From: Alphaproteobacteria bacterium
GTDB taxonomy: Bacteria > Pseudomonadota > Alphaproteobacteria > Bin95
Direction of reading: 5' to 3'
DNA length: 64,000 bases
NCBI GenBank assembly: GCA_965205265.1
Contig: CBDBGH010000003.1
Coordinates: 2,592,001-2,656,000, forward strand
This document shows, piece after piece, positions 10,193 through 24,006 of this stretch (position 1 is its first letter; the number at the start of each line of letters is the position of its first letter). The translations under genes were made by a program, and so were the position numbers. The notes under the pieces were generated by a model. The model made no database searches. It was not told the DNA's origin and worked only from the letters and a program-made list of their open reading frames with translations.

Positions 10193-10986
10193 GCCCTGTC
10201 CGGGTGGAGCGGGAGGGGATCGCCCTTCACGTCCTGCTGACGCGGCCGGAACGCCGCAACGCGCTGACCCAGGAGACGATGGACGCGCTGCTTGTTGCGT
10301 TCCGGAATGCGAAGGAGTCGGACGCGCGCGCGGTCGTGCTGCGCGGCGAGGGCGGGCAGTTCTCGGCAGGCGGCGACATGTCCATGCTGGGCGACATCCC
10401 GCCGCCTGCGGACCCGGACCCGCTCTTTCCCGTCTATCGCAAGATGGGCCATGTGCTGGAACTGCTGAACGCGCTGCCGCAGGCTGTGATCGCGGTGGTC
10501 GAGGGAGCCTGCACGGGCGGCGGCCTCGGCATGGCCTGCTGCTCCGATGTCGTCATCGTCACCGAGGACGCAAAGATCGGCCTGCCCGAGGCGCGCGCCG
10601 GCTTCATCCCGGCGCAGGTGATCCCCCATATCGTGCGCCGCATGGGCGAAGGCTGGACCCGGCGGCTGGTCGCAACCGGCACGATACTGGACGGTCACGA
10701 CGCGCTCCGCGACGGCCTCGCCCACATTCTCGTATCCGGACGCGAGGAAGCCGACAGGGCGCTGAGGGAGGTGCTGGAGCAGGTCTGCCGCTCGGAGCCG
10801 AACGCGGTCGCGGAGGCGAAGCGGCTGGTCATCTCCGCCTCCGACCGCCCGGTGGACGAAACCCTGGACGACGCCGCCCGCACCATAGCCGCCCTATTGC
10901 GCGCCCCCGCCGCCCGCGCCGGCATAGACGCCTTCCGCGCAAAGCGCCCGCCTCCCTGGGCGGAAGAGGACGGTGACACCGGATAG
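10189..10986 (+). CDS. Enoyl-CoA hydratase/isomerase (crotonase) family protein
   Basis: RPERRNAL, FSAGGD, GGGLGMA, GLPE motifs. Confidence 0.9.
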   Translation: MSPVRVEREGIALHVLLTRPERRNALTQETMDALLVAFRNAKESDARAVVLRGEGGQFSAGGDMSMLGDIPPPADPDPLFPVYRKMGHVLELLNALPQAVIAVVEGACTGGGLGMACCSDVVIVTEDAKIGLPEARAGFIPAQVIPHIVRRMGEGWTRRLVATGTILDGHDALRDGLAHILVSGREEADRALREVLEQVCRSEPNAVAEAKRLVISASDRPVDETLDDAARTIAALLRAPAARAGIDAFRAKRPPPWAEEDGDTG

Positions 10987-11239
10987 CAGCAGGAAGCTGC
11001 GCTCCGATTTCAAGGACCGAAAACTTATCGGCGGCGCGATCTACAAGGGCCATGGCGATGCCGGGCTGCTGACAGACAACGCCTGCGCCGGCGGCTGAAG
11101 CGCGGGCTTGGGCCGCCCAGCAGTAGGGCTGCGGCCGCACAGGACGTCGGCGCGCCGTCCGGAGAGGCGGCGAGAGCACGCAAATCGCGGCAAGAGAAGC
11201 GAATTGTTCGAAATAATTGAGTAATATTTCTCTATATGA

Positions 11240-11267
11240 CTTGCGTTTTCAGAAAGTGTGCTATAAT
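11240..11267 (+). promoter_or_regulatory. Putative sigma70 promoter with extended -10 (cassette A)
   Basis: TTGCGT (11241-46), N15, TATAAT (11262-67) preceded by TGc; AT-rich upstream. Confidence 0.6.
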
Positions 11268-11274
11268 GGGTTCG

Positions 11275-11470
11275 AGGGAGTGGAGTCCGCGCGGACCGCT
11301 TCCCGCCCGCGCCGGCCCGGTGCGGAACGACCCCGATTCAGCCGACAGGCGAAGTGCGCCCTGTGCCTGCCTCGCGCACGCGCAATCAGGCGCGCGAACC
11401 GCGCCGCCGCGAAACGTGCGCCCGCCCGCGCACAGGCGCCCGCGCAGGATACGCGCGGTAAAGGGTCGCT
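11275..11470 (+). other. Conserved structured leader / candidate ncRNA of cassette A
   Basis: Homologous to 23700-23905 (-): 33-nt identity at 11379-11411 vs 23764-23796 and 16-nt identity at 11430-11445 vs 23730-23745. Confidence 0.65.
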
Positions 11471-11525
11471 CCGATGCCGGGACGGGGCGCCTGATGAACG
11501 CGAGACGAACGAAGGAGCCGCACCC

Positions 11526-11960
11526 ATGCCCGTGCTCGACCCGACCCTCTCCCTCTCCTCGCGCCAGGAAGCCTTCCGCAACCACTATTATGAAAATACC
11601 AGAGTAAGCATGTCATTCCATGACACGCCGCAACAGCCCGCCCGTCCAGCCGGCGTCGTCCCCGACGGCGCGAAGCGTCGATCCGGGACCTCAGGCGGCC
11701 CGCCCGAAGATAACTACAACCCCGAACGATCCTCCCGCAAGCGGGCCGATGGCGAGCGCCCGAGCGAGGAGGAACGCGCCGAGGGCGCGGAAACCGACTG
11801 GCTCTACCAGCGCCGCAACAACTACACGGAACTCCACGACCCCTGGTCGCCGGAGAACATCGAACGCCGTCGCCGGGACAGCCTCAACCGGCTCGAAAGG
11901 GCCGGCCCCTTCAACCCGCCCCGAAACGCCGGTTCCGCCCCCGACCATGACATTTCATGA
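11526..11960 (+). CDS. Orphan hypothetical protein (144 aa) of cassette A, possibly degenerate
   Basis: GAAGGAG RBS before the ATG; MPVLDPTLSLSSRQEAFRNHYY...; stop lies within the CATGAC array. Confidence 0.5.
   Translation: MPVLDPTLSLSSRQEAFRNHYYENTRVSMSFHDTPQQPARPAGVVPDGAKRRSGTSGGPPEDNYNPERSSRKRADGERPSEEERAEGAETDWLYQRRNNYTELHDPWSPENIERRRRDSLNRLERAGPFNPPRNAGSAPDHDIS
11654..11693. repeat. REP-like palindrome inside the cassette A ORF
   Basis: cgtcgtccccgacggcgcgaagcgtcgatccgggacctc closely matches the reverse complement of 22953-22992. Confidence 0.7.
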
Positions 11961-11985
11961 CATTTCATGACATCCCATGACACTT
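11946..11985 (+). repeat. Four tandem 10-bp units, consensus CATGACATTT
   Basis: catgacattt catgacattt catgacatcc catgacactt; two more degenerate units at 11609-11626. Confidence 0.95.
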
Positions 11986-12037
11986 CGCCAGGGAGCCCGC
12001 CATGTGCCGGTCCATGAACCTCAGCACATACCCGCCC

Positions 12038-12925
12038 TCAATCCCGTCCGGCGATGCGGTCTGCCAGCGCCAGAGTGCGGCGGGCCTTTTCGACGATGGG
12101 GTAATCGACGAAATAGCCGTCCACCTGGATGGAGGCGGAGCCGGCGGCCTCGGCTTCGTCGAAGGCGGCGACGATGCGCCGTGCGCGTGTCGTCTCCTTC
12201 TCTGTCGGCGAGAAGGCGTCGTTGACCGGGCCCACCTGGCTCGGGTGGATGCAGAGCTTGCCCTGGAAGCCGAGCGCCAGCGCGCGCCGCGCCGAGGCCG
12301 CGAAGGCCTCCGTCTCGCGCAGTTCGATGAACACCGTATCGACTGGCGGCTCCAGCCCGCCCGCCCGCGACTCCATCACCATCGCCGCGCGCGCATGCGC
12401 CAGTTCCGCCTCGTCCAGAGACCAGCGCATCCCCACATCGAGCGTGTAGTCGCCGGCGCCGAAAGAGAGCCGCCGGAGCCGCGAGCGGCAGGCGGCGATC
12501 TCCTTCAGGTTGGACATGCCGAGGCCGGTCTCCACGATAGGCATGAGGTCGATGCTGCCGACCTCCAGCCCCGCCTTGCGCTCGAGCTGGGCGAGTGTCC
12601 AGTCGATGGTCTGGAGCATGGCCGCGCTTTCGAGTTTCGGCAGCACGATGCCGTCGAGCCACGGCCCGACGACCGCTTCCATGTCCCCGAAGCACCACTC
12701 GGTCTCGGCGGCGTTGACGCGCACGAAGCCCTTGCAGGGCCGCGGCCGCCTGAGCGCGGCGACGGCGTCGGCGCGGGCGGCCGGTTTCTCTGCGACCGCA
12801 ACCGCGTCCTCAAGGTCCAGGATCGCCGCGTCCGCGCCCGCCCGGAACACCTTCTTCGCCATGCGGGCATGGTTGGCCGGCGCGAACAGGAAGCTCCGCC
12901 AGGGTCCGGTCGAGGACAGGGCCAT
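12038..12925 (-). CDS. CitE-like (HpcH/HpaI aldolase/citrate lyase family) CoA-ester lyase
   Basis: RSFLFAPA, LDLEDAV, VRVN, GKLCIHPSQ. Confidence 0.92.
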   Translation of the reverse strand: MALSSTGPWRSFLFAPANHARMAKKVFRAGADAAILDLEDAVAVAEKPAARADAVAALRRPRPCKGFVRVNAAETEWCFGDMEAVVGPWLDGIVLPKLESAAMLQTIDWTLAQLERKAGLEVGSIDLMPIVETGLGMSNLKEIAACRSRLRRLSFGAGDYTLDVGMRWSLDEAELAHARAAMVMESRAGGLEPPVDTVFIELRETEAFAASARRALALGFQGKLCIHPSQVGPVNDAFSPTEKETTRARRIVAAFDEAEAAGSASIQVDGYFVDYPIVEKARRTLALADRIAGRD

Positions 12926-12934
12926 CTCGGCGCC

Positions 12935-13711
12935 TCACATCGCGGTCATGCCGCCGTCGATGGTCAGGTTCTTGCCGGTGATGTAGTTGGCCCCCGGCGC
13001 AAGCAGGAAGCAGACGCTGGGCGCCACGTCGCTGGTCTCGGCGTAGCGGCCGAGCGGTATGCGGGCCATGGTCTGGGCACCGAATTTCGGCCCCCGGATC
13101 ACTTCCGTCATCGGCGTGACGACCGTGCCGAACGCCACCGAATTCACGCAGATGCCGTAGCGCGCCCATTCCCGCGCCGCGCTCATGGTGATGCCGAGCA
13201 CGCCGGCCTTGGCGGCGCCGTAATTGATCTGGCCGATGGTGCCGGCCGTGCCTGCGATGGAGGACACATTGACGATCTGGCCGGGGCAGACGCCGAACTC
13301 GCCGGTCTCGGACTGTTTGATCATCTGCCTGCCGACCGACTGCAAGACCAGATAGACGGCCGTCAGGTTCACATTGATGACCTCGTCCCAGTATTCGCGG
13401 CTCATCTTGTGGATCATGGCGGCGCGGACGATACCGGCATTGTTGACGAGCCCGGTGATCGAACCCCACTCGCCGACCATCGCCTCGACGATGCCGTCCG
13501 CAAGGCCCTGGTCGGTGACCGAGCCGTGGAAGCCCATCGCCTTGTCGTCTCCGAGTTCGGCGACGAGGCTGTCTATGCCTTCCTTGTTGAGATCGACGAC
13601 GGCGGCGCGGCCGCCCATGGAGACGACGGTGCGCGCGACCTCGCGGCCGACGCCCTGCGCGGCGCCCGTGACCAGGACATTGCGGCCTTCGAGACTGAAG
13701 GGATTGCTCAT
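12935..13711 (-). CDS. Short-chain dehydrogenase/reductase (FabG-like)
   Basis: TGAAQGVG, NNAG, YGAAK. Confidence 0.93.
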   Translation of the reverse strand: MSNPFSLEGRNVLVTGAAQGVGREVARTVVSMGGRAAVVDLNKEGIDSLVAELGDDKAMGFHGSVTDQGLADGIVEAMVGEWGSITGLVNNAGIVRAAMIHKMSREYWDEVINVNLTAVYLVLQSVGRQMIKQSETGEFGVCPGQIVNVSSIAGTAGTIGQINYGAAKAGVLGITMSAAREWARYGICVNSVAFGTVVTPMTEVIRGPKFGAQTMARIPLGRYAETSDVAPSVCFLLAPGANYITGKNLTIDGGMTAM

Positions 13712-13788
13712 TTCGGCGTTTCCTTATGCATTCGGGTTCCGTTACCGTAGCCGCAACTGCGCCGGCGGCAAGCGGGAGAAAGGGACGC

Positions 13789-14847
13789 ATGACGGAGAAT
13801 CCGCGTTGGACGAGGCGGCCCGACGGGTCCACCTGGGGCGATTGGGGCCCAGACGACCAGCTCGGCCGGCTGAACCTGCTGACACCCGAACGGGTGCTGA
13901 CCGCGCGCGAGGAAATCCGCCTGGGCGAAGTCTATTGCCTGTCCCTGCCGCTGGACTATCCGGGCCGCAATGTGCTCAATCCCCGTCGTCATCCGCCCGT
14001 ACTGGAGCCGACCCGGGGACCGGACGGCGCGCCGCGCTACAACTTTCCGCTCCAGATCGAAGACCCCCGCCATATCGATGTCGGCTGCGACGACCGGGTG
14101 CAGATGACGCTGCAATATTCCTCGCAGTGGGACGCCTTCTGCCACATGGGGCAGATGTTCGATGCGGACGGCGACGGCATCCCGGAAATCCGCTTCTACA
14201 ACGGCTTCAGGGGCGGCGAGGACATTATCGGTCCGGTGGACTACAACGCCGACGGCTCGCAGACGCCCCGCCCGGAAGCGATGGGCGCGCGCAAGCTCGG
14301 CATCGAAACCTTCGCCGAAAAGGGGATTGTGGGGCGCGGCGTGATGATCGACCTGGAGCGCTTCTTCGGGCGCGAGGGGCGCCATCTCGTCACATATGAA
14401 GAGCTGATGCGCGTGCTGGAGGAGACCGGCGCGACGGTCGAGGAAGGCGATCTCGCCTTCTTCTACACGGGCTTCGCCGACCTGCTGCTGGAGATGGAGA
14501 AGGAGCCGGACGGCCCCCGCCTCGCCAATAGCTGCGCTGCGCTCGACGGGCGCGACGACCGGCTGCTGCAATGGGTCACGGACTCGGGCGTCGCCGCGCT
14601 CTTCGCCGACAACTACGCCGTCGAGCAGTCGCCCGCCCGGCCCATGCCGGGAGAGCGCTACGCCAACTCGCCGCTGCACCAGCACTGCCTGTTCAAGCTC
14701 GGCGTGCCGCTGGGCGAACTCTGGTATCTGGGCGACCTCGCCCGGCGGCTCCGGGAGCTCGGCCGGACACGCTTCTTCACCACCTGCCAGCCGCTCCGCC
14801 TGCCGGGCGCGGTCGGCTCCCCCGCCAATCCCGTCGGCATCGTCTGA
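13789..14847 (+). CDS. Cyclase family (kynurenine formamidase-like) metal-dependent hydrolase
   Basis: WGDWGPDDQLGRLN, SSQWDAFCH, LGELW, GAVGSPANP. Confidence 0.88.
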   Translation: MTENPRWTRRPDGSTWGDWGPDDQLGRLNLLTPERVLTAREEIRLGEVYCLSLPLDYPGRNVLNPRRHPPVLEPTRGPDGAPRYNFPLQIEDPRHIDVGCDDRVQMTLQYSSQWDAFCHMGQMFDADGDGIPEIRFYNGFRGGEDIIGPVDYNADGSQTPRPEAMGARKLGIETFAEKGIVGRGVMIDLERFFGREGRHLVTYEELMRVLEETGATVEEGDLAFFYTGFADLLLEMEKEPDGPRLANSCAALDGRDDRLLQWVTDSGVAALFADNYAVEQSPARPMPGERYANSPLHQHCLFKLGVPLGELWYLGDLARRLRELGRTRFFTTCQPLRLPGAVGSPANPVGIV

Positions 14848-14876
14848 CCCGCCAACCAGGAAAGCGACCGCATCCC

Positions 14877-15281
14877 ATGGCCATCACCAAGGGCATCGAC
14901 CGGCTCCTCGCCGCCGCCCGCGCGAAGATCGAGGAAATCCCCGCCGCAGACGCGCTGGCGCTCCGGGACGACGATTCCGTGCAGATCGTCGATATCCGCG
15001 ATGTGCGCGAACTCGACCGCGACGGCATGATCCCGGGCGCGCTGCATGCGCCGCGCGGCATGCTGGAATTCTGGGTCGATCCGGCAAGCCCCTATCACCG
15101 CGATGTGTTCGCAAGCGGCAAGAAGTTCGTCTTCTACTGCGCGAGCGGCTGGCGTTCGGCTCTGGCAACGGAGACGCTGCAGGACATGGGCCTGGAACCC
15201 GTCGCCCATATCGAAGGCGGTTTCACGGCCTGGAAAGAGGCCGGCGGCCCGGTCGCCGAACGGCCGCGCAAGGGCGGATAG
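14877..15281 (+). CDS. Rhodanese-like domain protein
   Basis: VDIRD..E, PRGMLEFW, YCASGWRS, IEGGFTAW. Confidence 0.9.
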   Translation: MAITKGIDRLLAAARAKIEEIPAADALALRDDDSVQIVDIRDVRELDRDGMIPGALHAPRGMLEFWVDPASPYHRDVFASGKKFVFYCASGWRSALATETLQDMGLEPVAHIEGGFTAWKEAGGPVAERPRKGG

Positions 15282-15309
15282 GCGGCGCTCCCGACATATT
15301 GCCTTCTTC

Positions 15310-15325
15310 CGGCACGCAGTTTGCT
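15310..15325 (+). promoter_or_regulatory. Sigma54 (-24/-12) promoter upstream of amtB
   Basis: cGGCACgcagtTTGCt matches TGGCAC-N5-TTGC; context is nitrogen-regulated genes. Confidence 0.75.
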
Positions 15326-15371
15326 TCTTACTAGGGGAACGGTCGTCCTCTGCAGGAGTTCGGAAGCGGCA

Positions 15372-17034
<1,663 letters not shown>

Positions 17035-17164
17035 CGGAGACATTGCGTCCCTGAAGCAGTTCGGGCGGCGCTGTCAGTTTGGTAGCGCCGCTTGCGCTTG
17101 CCGACCGCGACACCTGGCGGGTAGCCTTCGCCCTCCCGGCCCGCAAACAAAGGAAGCCGCGCCC

Positions 17165-18250
17165 ATGACGACGGTCCGAGCCATGACCTTCGGCGTGCAG
17201 ACCGCGCCCTCCACCGATGTCCGCAAGTCCGACAAGATGCTCTATGACGAGGTGATCGAAGACGTGAAGCTCGCCGCGGCGCTCGGCTACGAATCGGTCT
17301 GGATGCTGGAGCACCATTTCTCGGACTACTACCCGACGCCGAGCCCACTGCTCTTCATGGCGCATGTCGCCGCGCTTTGTCCGGATATCGGGCTCGGCAC
17401 CTCGGTGCTGGTGCTGCCCTGGTACCATCCGGTGCGCATCGCCGAAGAGGTCGCGATGCTGAACTCGCTGACGCGCGGCACCCTGCATCTGGGCCTCGGG
17501 CGCGGCACCGCGAAATCCGAATACGACGCCTATGGTGTGTCCATGCCGGAGGCGCGCGGCCGGTTCGCAGAGTCGCTGGACATCATCCGCAAGGGCCTCT
17601 CGGGGCAGGAATTCACCCATGACGGGACCTACTACAAGGTGCCGCGCCCGGTCCGCCTGCGCCCGGAGCCGGTGGACAAGCCGGTCAGGTTCTACGGCGC
17701 CATCGGCAGCCCGCAAAGCGCCGGCGTGATGGCCGGGCTCGAACTGCCACCGCTTTGCCTCTCCACCTTCCCGGCGCGGCTGCTGGAGCGGATCCTGGCG
17801 ACCTGGGACGAGAGCGCGCCCGCAAGCGCGGACCGGACCAAGGCCATCTCGATCAAGATGCTGATCGCCGACAGCGACGAGGAGGCGCTCAAGCTCGCGC
17901 GGCGTTATTTCCCGCCTTATTTCTCGATCCAGGCGGACCACTACGAGGCGGACGCGAACCCCTGGGAGAATATCGAGGAATACCAGCAGTTCTCCCGCAT
18001 GTTCGCCAATCTGCGCAAGATGGCGGACCCGGACGAGCTCGGCCCCTATTGCGAGATGAACCTTGTCGGCTCGCCGGAGACCGCCGTGGAGCGCCTCAAG
18101 GGCTATGCCGCGCTCGGTTTCGACTATGCGCTGGTTTCCGCCGCCACGCCCGGCATGCCCAAGGACCTGCAGCGCGAGGTCATGGCCCGCTTCGCCCGCG
18201 AAGTCGCCCCGCACTTCTCGCCGGCGTTCCGGGCGGAGGCGGCGGAGTAG
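17165..18250 (+). CDS. LLM class flavin-dependent oxidoreductase
   Basis: WMLEHHFS, HPVRIAEE, GLGRG. Confidence 0.9.
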   Translation: MTTVRAMTFGVQTAPSTDVRKSDKMLYDEVIEDVKLAAALGYESVWMLEHHFSDYYPTPSPLLFMAHVAALCPDIGLGTSVLVLPWYHPVRIAEEVAMLNSLTRGTLHLGLGRGTAKSEYDAYGVSMPEARGRFAESLDIIRKGLSGQEFTHDGTYYKVPRPVRLRPEPVDKPVRFYGAIGSPQSAGVMAGLELPPLCLSTFPARLLERILATWDESAPASADRTKAISIKMLIADSDEEALKLARRYFPPYFSIQADHYEADANPWENIEEYQQFSRMFANLRKMADPDELGPYCEMNLVGSPETAVERLKGYAALGFDYALVSAATPGMPKDLQREVMARFAREVAPHFSPAFRAEAAE

Positions 18251-18424
18251 CGCCGCGAAGCGGCCTCGGTGACGAGCGTCGGAGCGCGGCCCGATCCGGC
18301 TGCGTTTCGGCAGTCGGAACCGCCAACGATCCCGGCATCCCGATCCGTCACGACTCCTGATGACATAGCGGCGCGTCTCCGTGAATATAGGCGTCGATTG
18401 CCCGAACAGCGAACCGGAGGCGCC

Positions 18425-19408
18425 ATGACCCTCAATGCCGAGCTCAGCCGCAGGATCTACACGGACATGTGGCGAATCCGCCTCTTCGAGGAAGAAGCGC
18501 TGCGCCAGACCAGCCTCGGCTCCGTCAAGGGCACGCTCCACACCTATTGCGGCGAGGAGGCCATCGCGGTCGCGGTCTGCGCGCATCTGCGCGACGACGA
18601 CTATGTACTGGGAACCCACCGCAGCCACGGGCACTGCCTCGCCAAGGGCGCGCCGATGGACCGCATGATGGCGGAGCTGTTCGGGCGCGCGACCGGGAGC
18701 TGCCGCGCCAAGGGCGGTTCCATGCACATCGCCGACTTCTCGCGCAACATACTGGGCGCGAACGGTATCGTCGCCGGCGGCATCGGCCCCGGCACCGGCA
18801 CGGCGCTTGCGAGCAAAATCCGCAAGAGCGACCAGGTGTCGGTCGTCTTCTTCGGCGACGGGGCGGCGGCGCGCGGGCCCTTCCATGAGGGCCTCCTGTT
18901 CGGCTCGCTCTGGAAGCTGCCGGTCATCTATGTCTGCGAGAACAACGGTTACCAGCAATGGGTGCCCCGGAAGAATGTGGCGGTGGTGGACTCGGTGGCC
19001 GACATGGCGGCCTCCTACGCCATCCCCGGCGTCTCGGTGGACGGGCAGAACCTGGAGGCGGTCTATGAGGCCGCCGGCGAGGCCGTCGCCCGCGCCCGCA
19101 ATGGCGAGGGCCCGACCTTGATCGAGGCCCGCACATACCGTTTTTACGGCCACAGCCTGGGCGACATGGAGGAATACCGCTCGCGCGAGGAAGTCGATGA
19201 CTGGCGCGAGAACCGCGACCCGATCAAGCTGTTCAGCGCGTGGATGAAGGAGCGCCAGTGGCTGGGCGACGATGAGGACGAGGCCATCCAGGGCGAGGTT
19301 GCGGCGGAGGTCTCGCGGTCCGTGGCGTATGCCGAGGAAAGCCCGTTGCCGGAGCCGGAGGACGTGCTGACCGACGTGCTGGATACGGAATGGAGGGTTT
19401 CGGCATGA
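18425..19408 (+). CDS. TPP-dependent dehydrogenase E1 alpha (acetoin/2-oxoacid dehydrogenase-like)
   Basis: THRSHGH, GGSMH, FFGDG...ENN, TYRFYGHS. Confidence 0.93.
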   Translation: MTLNAELSRRIYTDMWRIRLFEEEALRQTSLGSVKGTLHTYCGEEAIAVAVCAHLRDDDYVLGTHRSHGHCLAKGAPMDRMMAELFGRATGSCRAKGGSMHIADFSRNILGANGIVAGGIGPGTGTALASKIRKSDQVSVVFFGDGAAARGPFHEGLLFGSLWKLPVIYVCENNGYQQWVPRKNVAVVDSVADMAASYAIPGVSVDGQNLEAVYEAAGEAVARARNGEGPTLIEARTYRFYGHSLGDMEEYRSREEVDDWRENRDPIKLFSAWMKERQWLGDDEDEAIQGEVAAEVSRSVAYAEESPLPEPEDVLTDVLDTEWRVSA

Positions 19409-20376
19409 GGACCATCGCGCTCCGCGATGCGCTCCGGGAAGCGCTGCATGAGGAAATGGCCCGCGACGAGAGCGTCTTCGTCATCGGCGAGGACGTGATC
19501 GCCCATGGCGGCCCCTATACCGTCACCCAGGGCATTGTGGACAAGTGGCCGGACCGCATTTTCGAGACGCCGATTGCGGAGGCGGGCATTGTCGGCCTCG
19601 GCGTGGGCGCGGCGCTGGCCGGCATGCGCCCGGTGGTCGAGATCATGTATGTCGATTTCATCACCTGCGCGATGGACGAGGTCGTCAACCAGGCCGCCAA
19701 GATGCGCTACATGACCGGCGGCCAGGCGAGCGTGCCCATCGTCATCCGCCTGCCCTGCGGCCCCGCCCGGCTGGTCGCGGCCCAGCATTCGCAGATCATG
19801 GAATCCTGGTTCATGCATGTGCCGGGCCTCCAGGTGGCGGCGCCGAGCACGCCCTATGACGCAAAGGGCCTGATGAAGACCGCGATCCGCAGCCCCGACC
19901 CCGTGGCGTTCTTCGAATACAAGGCGCTCTATGTGAGCGAGGGCGAGGTGCCGGAAGACGACTATGTCATCCCCTTCGGCAAGGCCGACATCAAGCGCGA
20001 GGGCGAGGACGCGACCGTGGTCGCCATCGGCGGCATGGTGCCGCGCGCGCTGGAGGCCGGCATTGCGCTCGAGGACGAGGGCTACGACATCGAGGTGGTG
20101 GACCCGAGGACGCTCGCCCCGCTCGACATGGAGACGATCCGCGAGTCCGTGCGCCGCACGGGCCGCGCCGTGGTTTGCGAGATGGATTCCTCCTTCGCCG
20201 GCACCGGCGCGGAGATCGCGGCTGCGCTCGCCGAGCAGTGCTTTCACGACCTGCGCGCGCCCATTGTGCGGGTCGGCAGCCCGCATGTGCCGATGCCCTT
20301 CGCCGAGGAGCTGGTCAACGTCACGGTTCCCGATGCCGGGGACGTCTCGGATGCCGTGCGCAGGGTCATGGCCTGA
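19405..20376 (+). CDS. Dehydrogenase E1 beta subunit
   Basis: IGEDV, TPIAEAGI, VNQAAK, AAQHSQ. Confidence 0.93.
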   Translation: MRTIALRDALREALHEEMARDESVFVIGEDVIAHGGPYTVTQGIVDKWPDRIFETPIAEAGIVGLGVGAALAGMRPVVEIMYVDFITCAMDEVVNQAAKMRYMTGGQASVPIVIRLPCGPARLVAAQHSQIMESWFMHVPGLQVAAPSTPYDAKGLMKTAIRSPDPVAFFEYKALYVSEGEVPEDDYVIPFGKADIKREGEDATVVAIGGMVPRALEAGIALEDEGYDIEVVDPRTLAPLDMETIRESVRRTGRAVVCEMDSSFAGTGAEIAAALAEQCFHDLRAPIVRVGSPHVPMPFAEELVNVTVPDAGDVSDAVRRVMA

Positions 20377-21545
20377 TGGCGGTCCGCCTCAGGCTCGCCG
20401 CGCTCGGCCACACCATGGAGCGCGGCAGGATCGTGGAATGGTATGCGGCGGAAGGCGCGCCGGTCGAACAGGGCGCGCCGCTCTACTCCGTCGAGACCGA
20501 CAAGGCGACCGTCGATGTCGAGGCGCCGGCCGGCGGCGTGCTGTTGCGCATCGACGCGGAGGCGGACCGGGAATATCCGGTGGGCGCAACGCTCGCCTGG
20601 ATCGGCGAGAGCGGCGAGGACCTGCCGGACAGGACGGACGAGACCGCGGCCGCGCCGGCGGCCGTGTCGGACGAACAGCGCGTCACGCCCGTCGCCCGGC
20701 GCCTCGCGGAACGCCATGGCGTGGACGCCGACCGGCTGGAAGGCACCGGCCCCGGCGGGCGCGTCACCAAGGAGGACGTGCAGCGCGCCGTCGCCTCGGG
20801 CACGGCCCCGCCGCTGGAAGAGAAGCCGTCGGGCGAGCCCGCGCATGACGTGATTGCGCTGGAAGGCATCCGCCGGGTCACGGCCGAGCGCCTCAGCGCG
20901 CACTGGACCGGCACGCCGCAGGTGACCGAGGGCCTCGATATCGACATGACCGCCATGCGCGCCTTCCGCAACGCCAACCGCAGCGAATGGCGCGCGGCCT
21001 ACGGCATCGTGCCGGCGCTGAACGACATCGTGCTCAAGGCCGCCGCGGCTGCGCTGGAAGCCAACCCGGCGCTCAACGCAGCCTTCGTGGACGGGGCGAT
21101 CCATCGCTACCGGGAGATCAATCTCGGCATGGCCGTGGATGTCGAGGACGGGCTCGTCGTGCCTGTGCTGCGCGATGCCGGCAGGCTCGACCTCGGCGGC
21201 ATCGCCTATGCCGCCGCCGACCTGACCGCCCGCGCGCGGTCCCGCAAGCTCGCGCCTGCGGATTTCGAGGGCGCCACCTTCACGGTCACAAATCTGGCCG
21301 CGCTCGGCGTGGACTGGTTCACGCCGGTGCTCAACCCGCCGCAATGCGCCATCCTCGGCGTCGGCCGGATGCGGCGCATGCCGGCCGTCGCCGGCAACGA
21401 GGTCGCGATCCGCGACATCGCCACCTTCGTCGTCACCTTCGACCACCGGGCCCTCGACGGCGCCCCGGCCGGGCGTTTCCTCTCCAGGCTGAAGCGCCTG
21501 CTCGAATCGCCCGACCCGGCGCTGTTCGCGGGCGCGGGCGGGTAG
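20376..21545 (+). CDS. Dihydrolipoamide acyltransferase E2
   Basis: Lipoyl ETDKA, E3-binding GTGPGGRVTKEDV, catalytic DHRALDG. Confidence 0.93.
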   Translation: MAVRLRLAALGHTMERGRIVEWYAAEGAPVEQGAPLYSVETDKATVDVEAPAGGVLLRIDAEADREYPVGATLAWIGESGEDLPDRTDETAAAPAAVSDEQRVTPVARRLAERHGVDADRLEGTGPGGRVTKEDVQRAVASGTAPPLEEKPSGEPAHDVIALEGIRRVTAERLSAHWTGTPQVTEGLDIDMTAMRAFRNANRSEWRAAYGIVPALNDIVLKAAAAALEANPALNAAFVDGAIHRYREINLGMAVDVEDGLVVPVLRDAGRLDLGGIAYAAADLTARARSRKLAPADFEGATFTVTNLAALGVDWFTPVLNPPQCAILGVGRMRRMPAVAGNEVAIRDIATFVVTFDHRALDGAPAGRFLSRLKRLLESPDPALFAGAGG

Positions 21546-21569
21546 GCCGGCCGGGCCTCGCGCTGAGCC

Positions 21570-22601
21570 ATGCGGACCACGCAGCTGATCCATGTCGTCG
21601 GCTGCCATGCCGAGGGCGAGGTGGGGGATGTGATCGTGGGCGGGGTCGCGCCGCCGCCGGGAGCGACGCTCTGGGAGCAGAGCCGCTTCATCGCCGGGGA
21701 CGGCCGGCTGCGCGATGTGGTGCTGAACGAGCCGCGCGGCGGCGTCTTCCGCCATGTCAACCTGCTCGTGCCGCCGAAGGACCCGGCCGCGGCGATGGGC
21801 TTCATCATCATGGAGCCGGAGGACACCCCGCCTATGTCCGGCTCCAACGCGATGTGCGTCGCGACCGTTCTGCTGGAGACCGGCATCGTGGCGATGGAGG
21901 AGCCGGAAACCCGTTTCCTGCTGGAGGCGCCGGGCGGCCCGGTCGAGGTCATCGCCGCCTGCCGGGACGGCAAGGCCGAGCGGGTGCGCATCCGCAATGT
22001 CCCCTCCTTCGCCGACCGGCTCGACGCGCCGCTCGAGGTCGAGGGCATGGGCACGCTGCGGGCCGATACCGCCTATGGCGGCGACAGCTACGCCATCGTG
22101 GACGCGGCCGCGCTCGGCTTCTCGCTCCGCCCCGACGAGGCGCGCGACCTCGCCGTCGCCGGCATGCGCATCGTCAGCGCCGCGAACGAGCAGATCGGCT
22201 TCCGCCATCCCGAGCAGGCGGACTGGGCGCATCTCTCCTTCTGCCAGTTCGCCGCCCCGCTCGAATATCGCGGCGGCGTCCCTCACGGCCGCAATGCGGT
22301 CGCCATCCGCCCCGGCAAGATCGACCGCTCGCCCTGCGGCACCGGCTGCTCGGCCCGGCTGGCCGTGCTGCACGCGAAGGGCGTTCTCCGCGTGGGCGAC
22401 AGCTTTGTGGGCGTCTCGCCGATCGACTCCCGCTTCGACTGCCGGATCGAGGGCGAGACCGCGGTGGGCGGCCGCCCGGCCATCCTGCCCTCGCTCGCCG
22501 GGCGGGCCTGGATCACCGGCACGCGCCAGGTCATGGTCGATCCCGACGACCCCTGGCCGCGCGGCTACCGCCTCGCCGACACCTGGCCCGACGACCGCTG
22601 A
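21570..22601 (+). CDS. Proline racemase family protein, Ser/Cys variant (hydroxyproline dehydratase/epimerase-like)
   Basis: HAEGE, NEPRG, MSGSN in place of [12 protein letters not shown]. Confidence 0.9.
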
Positions 22602-22647
22602 ACAGGGCGGCAGGCCCGCGATCCCGCCGCACCGCGCCTTCCCGGCC

Positions 22648-22710
22648 GATGTCATGAGATGTCATGAGGCGCCGTGAGCCTTCCCCGCGATGTGTCATGA
22701 AATGTCATGA
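22648..22710 (-). repeat. Two pairs of 10-bp CATGACAT-type repeats (cassette B end)
   Basis: gatgtcatga gatgtcatga (22648-67) and tgtgtcatga aatgtcatga (22691-710), the reverse complement of the cassette A unit. Confidence 0.92.
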
Positions 22711-22837
22711 TCTGCATGCCCGGAGTTCATATGCCGTAGCCGTTTCAGGCATGAAGCCGTCCACGCATTGACCTCCTTCCCGGCCTGTGGGCGAAGCCCG
22801 GCAAAGGCCCGTCGCGCTGAAAGACGGCCTCCCGTCC

Positions 22838-22992
22838 CCCTGCCCTCGCGAAAGCGGGGGCACCCCGGTTCCCCTTCAGCGTCACCCCGGCCGGAACGGA
22901 GCGAAGCGGAGTGGAGAGCCGGGGTCTCCCTGCGGCGTCGCCCCTGCCGCGGGAGGTCCCGGATCGGCGCTGACGCGCCGTCCGGGACGACG
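22838..22992. repeat. Cluster of REP-like hairpins
   Basis: ccctcgcgaaagcggggg; cgtcaccccggc...gccggggtctc; gaggtcccggatcggcgctgacgcgccgtccgggacgacg. Confidence 0.7.
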
Positions 22993-23083
22993 GCAAAAGC
23001 TCATGGGTTCTTGCATGTAGCCGCTGGTATAAGGCAAGCAGGATGGAGACGATCCCCGCCGCAAGCGGGAGGGCGGGCATGCT

Positions 23084-23680
23084 CTACCATCCACCGGCGC
23101 TCCCGCCCGCAGCGGCGGCCTCCCTTGCGGCGAGTTCTGCGGCCTCGCGGCGTTCCTGGCGGGCGAGCCAGTCGTAGAACGCGGGCGTGGTCAGCTTGCC
23201 CACATACTGGCGCTCGCCGAAGTTGTAGTAGTCCTCGCTGCCGTCGTAACTGTCCTCGTCGGGCACCAGCGGCCCGAAGCGGCGCTCCTGCTCCGCATGC
23301 CACGCCCGGAACTCCGGCGTCTGCTGGCTGCCGACATAGACCTCGTCGAAATAGTGGTATTCGTCCTCGCTGCCGTCATAGCCGGTCTCGGGCTCCGGCT
23401 CCGGAACCCAGTCGTCGAGGTCCTCCGCCGGTTCCCCGATGACTGCCGGCTCCGGCTCGGGCATGCGGGCGGCGGCCCAGTCGAGGAGGTTGAGGATCTG
23501 GCGCAGATGGGAGAGCGCGGCGCGCCCGGCGCGGTGACGGTCGGCCAGGGCGCGGTCGTCCTCCGGCGGCGGCGCTGCGTTCATGTCCTGGGCATAAGCT
23601 TCGGCAAGGGCTGCGGCGGCGGGCGCCAGCTTTTCGGCCAGCATCGCCGCCAGTGCGGGGCGGGGGTCGGTTGCGGTCAT
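23084..23680 (-). CDS. Orphan hypothetical protein (198 aa) of cassette B with two acidic/aromatic internal repeats
   Basis: GGAGGAGG RBS; helical N-terminus; YDGSED..YVG...TP.F..W...QERR occurs twice. Confidence 0.75.
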   Translation of the reverse strand: MTATDPRPALAAMLAEKLAPAAAALAEAYAQDMNAAPPPEDDRALADRHRAGRAALSHLRQILNLLDWAAARMPEPEPAVIGEPAEDLDDWVPEPEPETGYDGSEDEYHYFDEVYVGSQQTPEFRAWHAEQERRFGPLVPDEDSYDGSEDYYNFGERQYVGKLTTPAFYDWLARQERREAAELAAREAAAAGGSAGGW

Positions 23681-23699
23681 CGTCTCTCCTCCTCCGACG

Positions 23700-23905
23700 G
23701 GAAGCGGGTCCCTGTTTCGCGCGTCTCCCGCGCGGGCGCCTGTGCCGGCGCGGGCGGGCGTTACGCGGCGGCGCGGTTCGCGCGCCTGATTGCGCGCGCG
23801 AGGCGGCGGGCGCACGTCTCCCGTCGGCTTCCCAGGGGTTTTCAGAAAGTGGCGCCGCTCGGCCGCGCAGCACCCGGGGAGGCGGCTCCGGAGTCCGCTT
23901 CCCTG
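23700..23905 (-). other. Conserved structured leader / candidate ncRNA of cassette B
   Basis: Homologous to 11275-11470 (+). Confidence 0.65.
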
Positions 23906-23911
23906 GGGGCC

Positions 23912-23938
23912 ATCATACCATAATCCGCCAGATGTCAA
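23912..23938 (-). promoter_or_regulatory. Putative sigma70 promoter with extended -10 (cassette B)
   Basis: TTGACA (23938-33), N15, TATGAT (23917-12) preceded by TGg; same geometry as the cassette A promoter. Confidence 0.65.
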
Positions 23939-24006
23939 GCCCATACAGGGAACATAATTCAAAAATATCGGAAATTGTTCATATTATCGAAGGCAGGAAA
24001 GGGCAG

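Follow-up and report, generated by a model that had tools for sequence, protein, structure and literature searches.

Phage satellites such as the phage-inducible chromosomal islands (PICI) and the PICI-like elements (PLE) carry their own TerS, and elements of the IS110/IS1111 type combine a 5' non-coding 'bridge' RNA with an open reading frame (ORF) for a DEDD recombinase. Here we analysed a stretch of 64,000 nucleotides (the window) from the genome of an alphaproteobacterium (GCA_965205265.1, contig CBDBGH010000003.1, positions 2,592,001 to 2,656,000) that holds two small cassettes, A and B, each with a promoter-like pair, a leader, one ORF and CATGACA repeats. We favour, with moderate confidence, the reading that these cassettes belong to a lineage-specific family, in uncultured sponge-associated Alphaproteobacteria, of small elements that are selfish or were once mobile, and that the repeat arrays of the family bind a TerS-like protein. 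In the portion of the literature that was accessible to us we found no description of such cassette elements. Two protein types are encoded in the family, a TerS-like one (type A) and a second one (type B).

As is the case for MITEs (miniature transposable elements with inverted repeats) and their parent insertion sequences, the cassettes are dispersed, mostly intergenic, present in many copies and variable in presence between relatives, and, again as in MITEs, the short non-coding copies have arisen from ORF-bearing ones by internal deletion with both ends kept. Unlike MITEs, they have no terminal inverted repeat beyond a likeness of 5-6 nt (left TGTTCA; complement of right TGACA), no target-site duplication and no transposase domain in either ORF, and every copy has its own promoter and a leader of ~230 nt. 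With the IS110/IS1111-type elements they share a promoter followed by a ~200-nt non-coding leader before one ORF, and the lack of target duplications and of clear inverted repeats, but their ORF is no DEDD recombinase and their leader shows neither conserved structure nor covariation. They differ from integron gene cassettes in that their 3' ends are direct repeats and not the imperfect inverted repeat of attC, and in that they have a promoter-like pair of their own, lie as single dispersed copies and have no Phage_integrase hit in the window.

Type A resembles the TerS of SPP1/SF6-like phages in its N-terminal DNA-binding fold, which is followed by a long helix, and the repeated, helically phased DNA motifs in or next to its gene recall a pac site. 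It departs from that system in that no large terminase, capsid or other phage gene lies nearby (nor anywhere in the genome, as judged by three Pfam families), in that there are seven intact copies per genome with a clade-only C-terminal extension of ~180 aa, and in that array binding by type A is a prediction. In common with PICI and PLE the cassettes hold a TerS homologue without a capsid or large terminase of their own, which could redirect the packaging of a helper; unlike these satellites they are about ten times smaller, have no integrase, replication or regulation module, occur in dozens per chromosome and have no known helper phage.

Insertion sites and layout of the window cassettes

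Both window cassettes are inserted DNA, because relatives hold empty sites. In 10 of 16 sister species the neighbours of site A share a contig with 21-39 bp between them (coordinate subtraction, with alignment), and at site B the gap between the flanking genes is 1-21 bp in seven of the 16; an earlier note on the sequence of the window had proposed expression or mobile cassettes. A contig from a sponge metatranscriptome library represents an empty allele of site A, where position 10964 is joined to 12032 with 22 other letters between them. In the genome G005 site A is occupied by an intact type A element with a 336-aa protein, and in G007 by two ORFs unrelated to the cassette, so that one intergenic spot took different insertions. 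These two ORFs encode 445 aa with a P-loop-like GENSTGKT motif (L166:239-1576) and 144 aa (L166:1588-2022). At site B, G016 and G005 have the left end and leader and continue directly with the 3' block and array, being orthologous internal-deletion copies of type B; the copy in G016 additionally retains the first ~26 codons of the type B ORF. The surroundings of a short cassette elsewhere in the genome (L019, G000:C3:205758-208939) form a synteny break, its two flanks being far apart or on separate contigs in most sister species.

Cassette A on the plus strand and cassette B on the minus strand follow a common plan, in which an AT-rich stretch, a promoter-like pair, a GC-rich leader, a Shine-Dalgarno sequence, an ORF and CATGACA units succeed one another. 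Their features, in positions of the window, are the following.

10965-12031, no strand: segment missing from the relatives' empty sites (site A); the family-homologous cassette covers ~11197-11985, and the metatranscriptome contig joins 10964 to 12032
11204-11240, plus: left-end AT-rich block that begins TTGTTC, the leftmost feature common to nearly all copies (sequence, copy alignment)
11241-11267, plus: promoter-like pair TTGCGT, 15 nt, TATAAT, with TG at -15/-14 (sequence)
11334-11467, plus: conserved GC-rich leader core including the invariant 33-nt block; 71 genome copies (alignment, profile search)
11496-11510, plus: direct repeat GAAC-N7-GAAC, SOS-box-like, immediately 5' of the Shine-Dalgarno sequence (motif search)
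11526-11960, plus: chimeric 144-aa ORF, type A (TerS-like) remnant; N-terminal ~22 codons, then the deletion junction
11609-11624, plus: internal degenerate CATGTCA/CATGACA pair at the deletion junction
11654-11699, plus: REP-like (repetitive extragenic palindromic) repeat of an independent genome-wide family, within the remnant ORF
11691-11984, plus: what is left of the TerS-like gene's C-terminal part (profile positions 218-320)
11946-11982, plus: right-end array of four CATGACA units at a 10-bp period, containing the ORF stop
22602-24006, no strand: segment missing from the relatives' empty sites (site B)
23941-23990, minus: left-end AT-rich block of cassette B (GAACA ... TGTTC)
23912-23938, minus: promoter-like pair of cassette B, TTGACA, 15 nt, TATGAT, with TG before the second hexamer
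23708-23830, minus: leader core of cassette B
23084-23680, minus: type B ORF, 198 aa, conserved in the clade, without Pfam family or PDB fold match
22946-22992, minus: REP-like repeat (independent family)
22711-22757, minus: conserved 3' block with phased CATGCC / TATGAA / CATGCA, found 5' of the arrays in B-type and short copies
22650-22709, minus: right-end arrays, two CATGACA pairs with a ~26-nt spacer between them

The hexamers of the promoter-like pair lie at 11241-11246 (TTGCGT) and 11262-11267 (TATAAT, preceded by TGC) in cassette A, and at 23938-23933 (TTGACA) and 23917-23912 (TATGAT, preceded by TGG) on the minus strand in cassette B. The earlier note had reported a promoter with an identical 15-nt spacer; the two spacers are indeed equal in length, but their sequences differ, and neither pair was called by our sigma-70 scan, which accepts spacers of 16-18 nt only. 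The homology of the leaders was confirmed at 75% mean column identity, with one exact block of 33 nt. Both ORFs (11526-11960, 144 aa, in cassette A; 23680-23084, 198 aa, in cassette B) are preceded by a Shine-Dalgarno sequence and do not resemble one another (BLASTP E=2; hhalign probability 0.9%), as had been described; the view of them as two orphans needs correction, the ORF of cassette A being a chimeric TerS-like remnant and no independent orphan. The terminal 10-bp repeats were likewise recovered, the CATGACA array pattern with units at a 10-bp period giving five matches in the window and none in 100 shuffles.

Cassette A lies between the convergent genes for an enoyl-CoA hydratase (plus strand) and an HpcH aldolase (minus strand), and cassette B between those for a proline-racemase-family protein (plus strand) and LysE (minus strand), so that the placement between convergent genes first noticed in the sequence holds for both. 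The absence of transposases and integrases from the window, also claimed, stands for two families, as none of the 58 Phage_integrase and none of the 7 rve matches in the genome falls inside it. Several of these 58 Phage_integrase matches form tandem pairs or trios ~1.1 kb apart (for example, 2384872/2386009 and 3493536/3494486/3495397). Away from the cassettes, the summed contig depth at 15671-16131 and 18437-18897 of the window is several-fold above that of neighbouring bins in DNA runs, and many small contig joints fall at 15556-16074; this may reflect a further repeat or a segment both variable and highly conserved.

The family in this genome and its relatives

A first pass over the genome that contains the window gave 43 leader matches, and 91 matches to the array pattern against 0 for a reversed control. 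An iterated nhmmer search recovered 71 full copies of the leader core, every one on contig C3. A same-strand array follows within 2.5 kb downstream in 66 of these 71, and TGnTAnnATG is located 59-94 nt upstream in 38. Taken from the other side, 79 of the 95 array clusters have a core at most 2.6 kb upstream on the same strand (reversed-pattern control, 0 hits). The family is thus not limited to the two window copies, and leader and arrays do not occur independently of each other, in agreement with the dispersed family with a conserved non-coding frame that had been proposed. A complete element measures ~1.2-1.4 kb and runs from an AT-rich left end through the promoter-like pair, the ~230-nt leader and a single ORF to the CATGACA right end; the left AT-rich block beginning TTGTTC is present in almost all copies, and similarity stops upstream of it. 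In the B-type and short copies a common block of ~50 nt stands 5' of the arrays, with CATG/TATG motifs ~22 and 10 bp apart that are in helical phase with the arrays. Three array units at a 10-nt period place TGA and ATG in each reading frame. The orientation of the cassettes showed no bias with respect to the GC-skew turning points of the genome. A gene caller based on GC at third codon positions (GC3) placed 20 copies in convergent, 18+14 in tandem and 18 in divergent contexts; this caller is crude and mis-called the context of cassette B, and we draw no conclusion from its counts.

By BLAST coverage the leader core has ~70 copies and the remaining parts of the element ~9-20, which makes the core the most conserved part, and this, together with a promoter-like pair before every well-preserved copy and short copies without a conserved reading frame, would suit a family in which the leader core, perhaps with the 3' block and arrays, is a structured regulatory RNA or a multicopy small RNA and the ORFs are secondary. 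Such an RNA is very unlikely in view of the folding results. Rfam gave no match at the gathering threshold in the window, and for the full element at E<=5 one chance-level microRNA hit; the leader folds no more stably than shuffled sequences do (z = -0.41); RNAalifold over 40 copies returned a covariation term of 0.01, with a double change in 1 of 18 pairs; the 3' block yielded no consensus RNA structure; and no terminator-like site follows the arrays. The CATG motifs, being phased at ~10-11 and 22 bp, are suited to DNA binding, and for the invariant block and the phased motifs taken together sequence-specific DNA binding would fit better than an RNA fold.

The clade is known from sponge metagenomes as uncultured Alphaproteobacteria or Rhodospirillaceae metagenome-assembled genomes (MAGs). 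Among the 16 sister species, which as related species are non-independent samples, the leader core is present in 14, type A in 12 and type B in 12, and array hits number 127-360 in 12 of them. The genome G008 has 25 array hits with one type B and no type A element, and G001, G003 and G013 have 1, 0 and 0 array hits and neither protein type. The core was found in none of eight genomes searched from two sister genera, and 20 genomes of two sister genera gave no array hits save a single one in one genome. That the cassettes are ordinary host gene families that have in common a regulatory region spread by duplication (SOS-regulated paralogues, for example), neither inserted nor mobile, would agree with the purifying selection on A and B described below, with the SOS-like boxes and with the retention of some orthologous copies between species. 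It is difficult to reconcile with the 71 copies of this genome and the array hits that run into hundreds in sister species, yet number 0-1 in three congeneric species, with the numerous decayed and deleted copies and, above all, with the empty sites that leave 1-39 bp between flanking genes, and we regard it as highly improbable.

Several other repeats were observed on contig C3. A second repeat of ~600 bp with terminal inverted repeats of ~30 nt sits inside CATGACA arrays (G000:C3:1588548-1589134, outside the window; further ends at array rows 293410, 841338, 1205614, 3619636 and 4009062). It has AAACATGA on both flanks, resembling an 8-bp target duplication, so that the arrays seem to be a preferred target of another element. 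An insertion sequence of 1917 bp (G000:C3:2388986-2390902) has 56 full-length, near-identical copies, and its end directly abuts a CATGACA array at two places (rows 2837637 and 3856207); its proximity to cassettes is not beyond chance (3 within 400 bp, against a mean of 2.3 for random placements). The last 0.83 Mb of C3 (G000:C3:4632000-5463552) contains long near-identical duplicates of other C3 parts, up to 21 kb at 99.995%, with a steep rise in GC skew and with cassette cores only inside the duplicates; it may be assembly redundancy or a second replicon, the contamination of the genome being given as 7.28%. The contigs C1 and C2 have no cassette cores.

Two protein types and their decayed copies

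Type A is represented in the genome by seven elements of ~1.24 kb with proteins of 303-311 aa. The N terminus matches Terminase_2 (PF03592, E=3.7e-13, 50.7 bits against a cut-off of 26.1) as well as phrog_51, with 36-39% identity to the N-terminal domain of SPP1/SF6-like TerS over 51-56 residues. When modelled, this domain superposes on the DNA-binding domain of SF6 G1P (4zc3) with a template-modelling (TM) score of 0.90, a root-mean-square deviation of 1.0 A and a probability of 1.0. It is followed in the model, which is of a monomer, by a helix at 52-106 with a predicted local distance difference test (pLDDT) of 71-89, and a further structure, 3zqq, aligned over 128 columns with a probability of 0.99 and a low TM score. 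The models thus indicate that type A is a TerS-like protein with a DNA-binding domain of TerS fold, to which a conserved C-terminal extension of ~180 aa, restricted to the clade, is added. All seven Terminase_2 matches of the genome are type A elements, and Terminase_6N, TerL_ATPase, Phage_capsid and Y1_Tnp gave no matches in it (completeness 98.98%). In the absence of matches to Terminase_6N, TerL_ATPase and Phage_capsid, this TerS would have no resident partner. A tblastn search of 50,697 phage records with type A gave no match and IMG/VR four distant ones, N-terminal only; a distant blastn search of a plasmid collection with the full type A element also gave none.

Nine elements of ~1.2-1.4 kb in the genome encode type B, a protein of 198 aa. 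PHROGs returned a weak hit to phrog_31793 only, and the 147 homologues have no informative names, the single named hit being a hypothetical protein of an alphaproteobacterial MAG. The model (pLDDT 74.9) consists of a helical hairpin followed by two beta-hairpin-helix repeats; it matched no PDB structure at E<=0.001, and against the protein atlas it reached scores of 0.85 only, which are leads at best. No match to type B was found by tblastn in the 50,697 phage records, nor in IMG/VR. Codons with single differences between paralogues were synonymous or nonsynonymous in proportions of 312:114 over the seven type A copies and 475:222 over the nine type B copies, which indicates purifying selection on both types.

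Comparison with the full-length type A copies showed that cassette A has retained left end, leader and ~22 initial codons of the 303-aa TerS-like gene, past which come the degenerate CATGTCA/CATGACA pair, the REP-like insert, the last ~95 codons and the array. Its deletion junction is common to two further copies in the genome. Judging from these alignments, cassette A is a decayed copy of type A and cassette B an intact copy of type B. Fragments of the TerS-like gene with only the N-terminal or only the C-terminal part are numerous in the genus, and short copies have no conserved reading frame; internal deletions, as read from the alignments, yield short MITE-like copies that retain both ends, and A-type copies may be the autonomous form of the element, which the earlier note had taken to be non-autonomous. 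The cargo, which the earlier note had taken to be swappable and variable, is not freely exchangeable; it consists of the two conserved protein types and their internal-deletion derivatives, among which the ORF of cassette A is one remnant. The REP-like hairpins of the two cassettes, which had been counted as a shared part, are related at 87% identity, but they form an independent genome-wide repeat that is also found far from cassettes and is no part of them. This GC-rich repeat (11654-11699 and 22946-22992 of the window) has ~16 copies by BLAST coverage and is translated within spurious ORFs.

Proposed array binding, SOS-like boxes and a possible role in packaging

In other lineages of sponge MAGs, TerS-like genes of 53-60% identity stand alone between housekeeping genes and lack the GC-rich core. 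They have 10-bp-phased arrays, some with CCTGACA units, and 36 of 47 TerS-like loci have TGAC-N6-TGAC between -40 and +80 relative to the stop codon, a pattern with 14 hits in a background of 438,888 nt. The association of TerS-like genes with phased TGAC arrays is hence conserved across lineages. Large ORFs downstream of the distant TerS-like genes were set aside as apparently antisense readings of a gene on the opposite strand. A second motif, GAAC-N7-GAAC, lies just upstream of the start codon in 24 of 34 TerS-like loci from several lineages and has no occurrence in 94,798 nt of background. It is the complement of the Caulobacter SOS box, GTTCN7GTTC, as given in PMC9578287, and would suggest SOS (LexA) control of expression in many lineages.

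Under the reading that we favour, oligomers of the TerS-like protein, expressed under SOS control in many lineages, would bind the arrays and the phased CATG motifs that precede them as DNA sites, and the arrays are probably binding sites of this protein. The same observations lend themselves to a further interpretation, in which the cassettes are minimal terS-plus-pac modules that hijack or decoy packaging: upon damage to DNA or infection by a phage, array-bound TerS-like protein would recruit a phage large terminase, and packaging from the cassettes would spread them and host DNA by transduction, or would sabotage the phage as a defence. It has in its support the TerS DNA-binding fold of type A, the phased arrays in which TerS-like genes of several lineages end and the SOS-box-like motif in 24 of 34 loci; the confinement of all seven Terminase_2 hits to type A elements, with no large terminase or capsid partner resident, is consistent with it, and the lack of target duplications and transposases would fit transduction plus homologous recombination. 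No helper phage is known, however, neither A nor B has a PADLOC hit, and both are absent from the 50,697 phage records, with four distant N-terminal matches of A in IMG/VR; moreover, it leaves unexplained the arrival at new chromosomal sites, the role of the B protein and that of the leader core, and we consider it unlikely. Still more doubtful is a specific form of the mechanism, in which SOS-induced TerS-like oligomers at the phased TGACA arrays (more than 100 chromosomal sites) would recruit the large terminase of an induced or infecting phage and headful packaging would start from the cassettes, the family being a distributed pac site or minimal phage satellite that transduces itself and neighbouring host genes and sabotages the phage.

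Several observations weigh against our own reading of a selfish or formerly mobile family with TerS-bound arrays. The junctions at both window sites are untidy, cassette A having ~230 bp of additional sequence on its left, and ~20 bp of the ancestral spacer being replaced; there is no target-site duplication at the two window sites nor in 55 listed copies, no convincing terminal inverted repeat (a likeness of just 5-6 nt between left TTGTTC(A/G) and right CATGACA) and no right-end-to-left-end junction anywhere in the genome. Neither protein has a known transposase or recombinase domain (type A by Pfam, PHROGs, NCBIfam and PADLOC, the last of which gave no hit; type B has no Pfam, NCBIfam or PADLOC family). 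The B-type and short copies have arrays yet do not encode A, and the binding of arrays by A is itself a prediction. The exact SOS-like box is present in just 2 of the 71 copies in this genome, cassette A having one and cassette B none. The closest pair of copies is 98.4% identical with the AT-rich left end more diverged than the interior, which hints at gene conversion, and this rather than recent transposition could explain their similarity. As to expression, the data were contigs of one metatranscriptome run and one run guessed to be RNA; being a repeat, the leader shows elevated depth in DNA runs as well, and the depth permits no inference on transcription, start sites or strand.

For those who work with such genomes, the family has the practical consequence that it sits at a synteny break and at the contig ends of MAGs and generates false 'orphan' ORFs. 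For the biology of the group, one genus of sponge symbionts has been invaded by this element family (127-360 array hits per genome in 12 sister species, 0-1 in three others), of which the sole conserved proteins are a DNA binder resembling a terminase and a second one without known family or fold. If the A and B proteins drive the spread of the cassettes, small elements would have a new means of moving or of exploiting phages, and if the arrays are pac-like, they may influence gene transfer in these uncultured symbionts.

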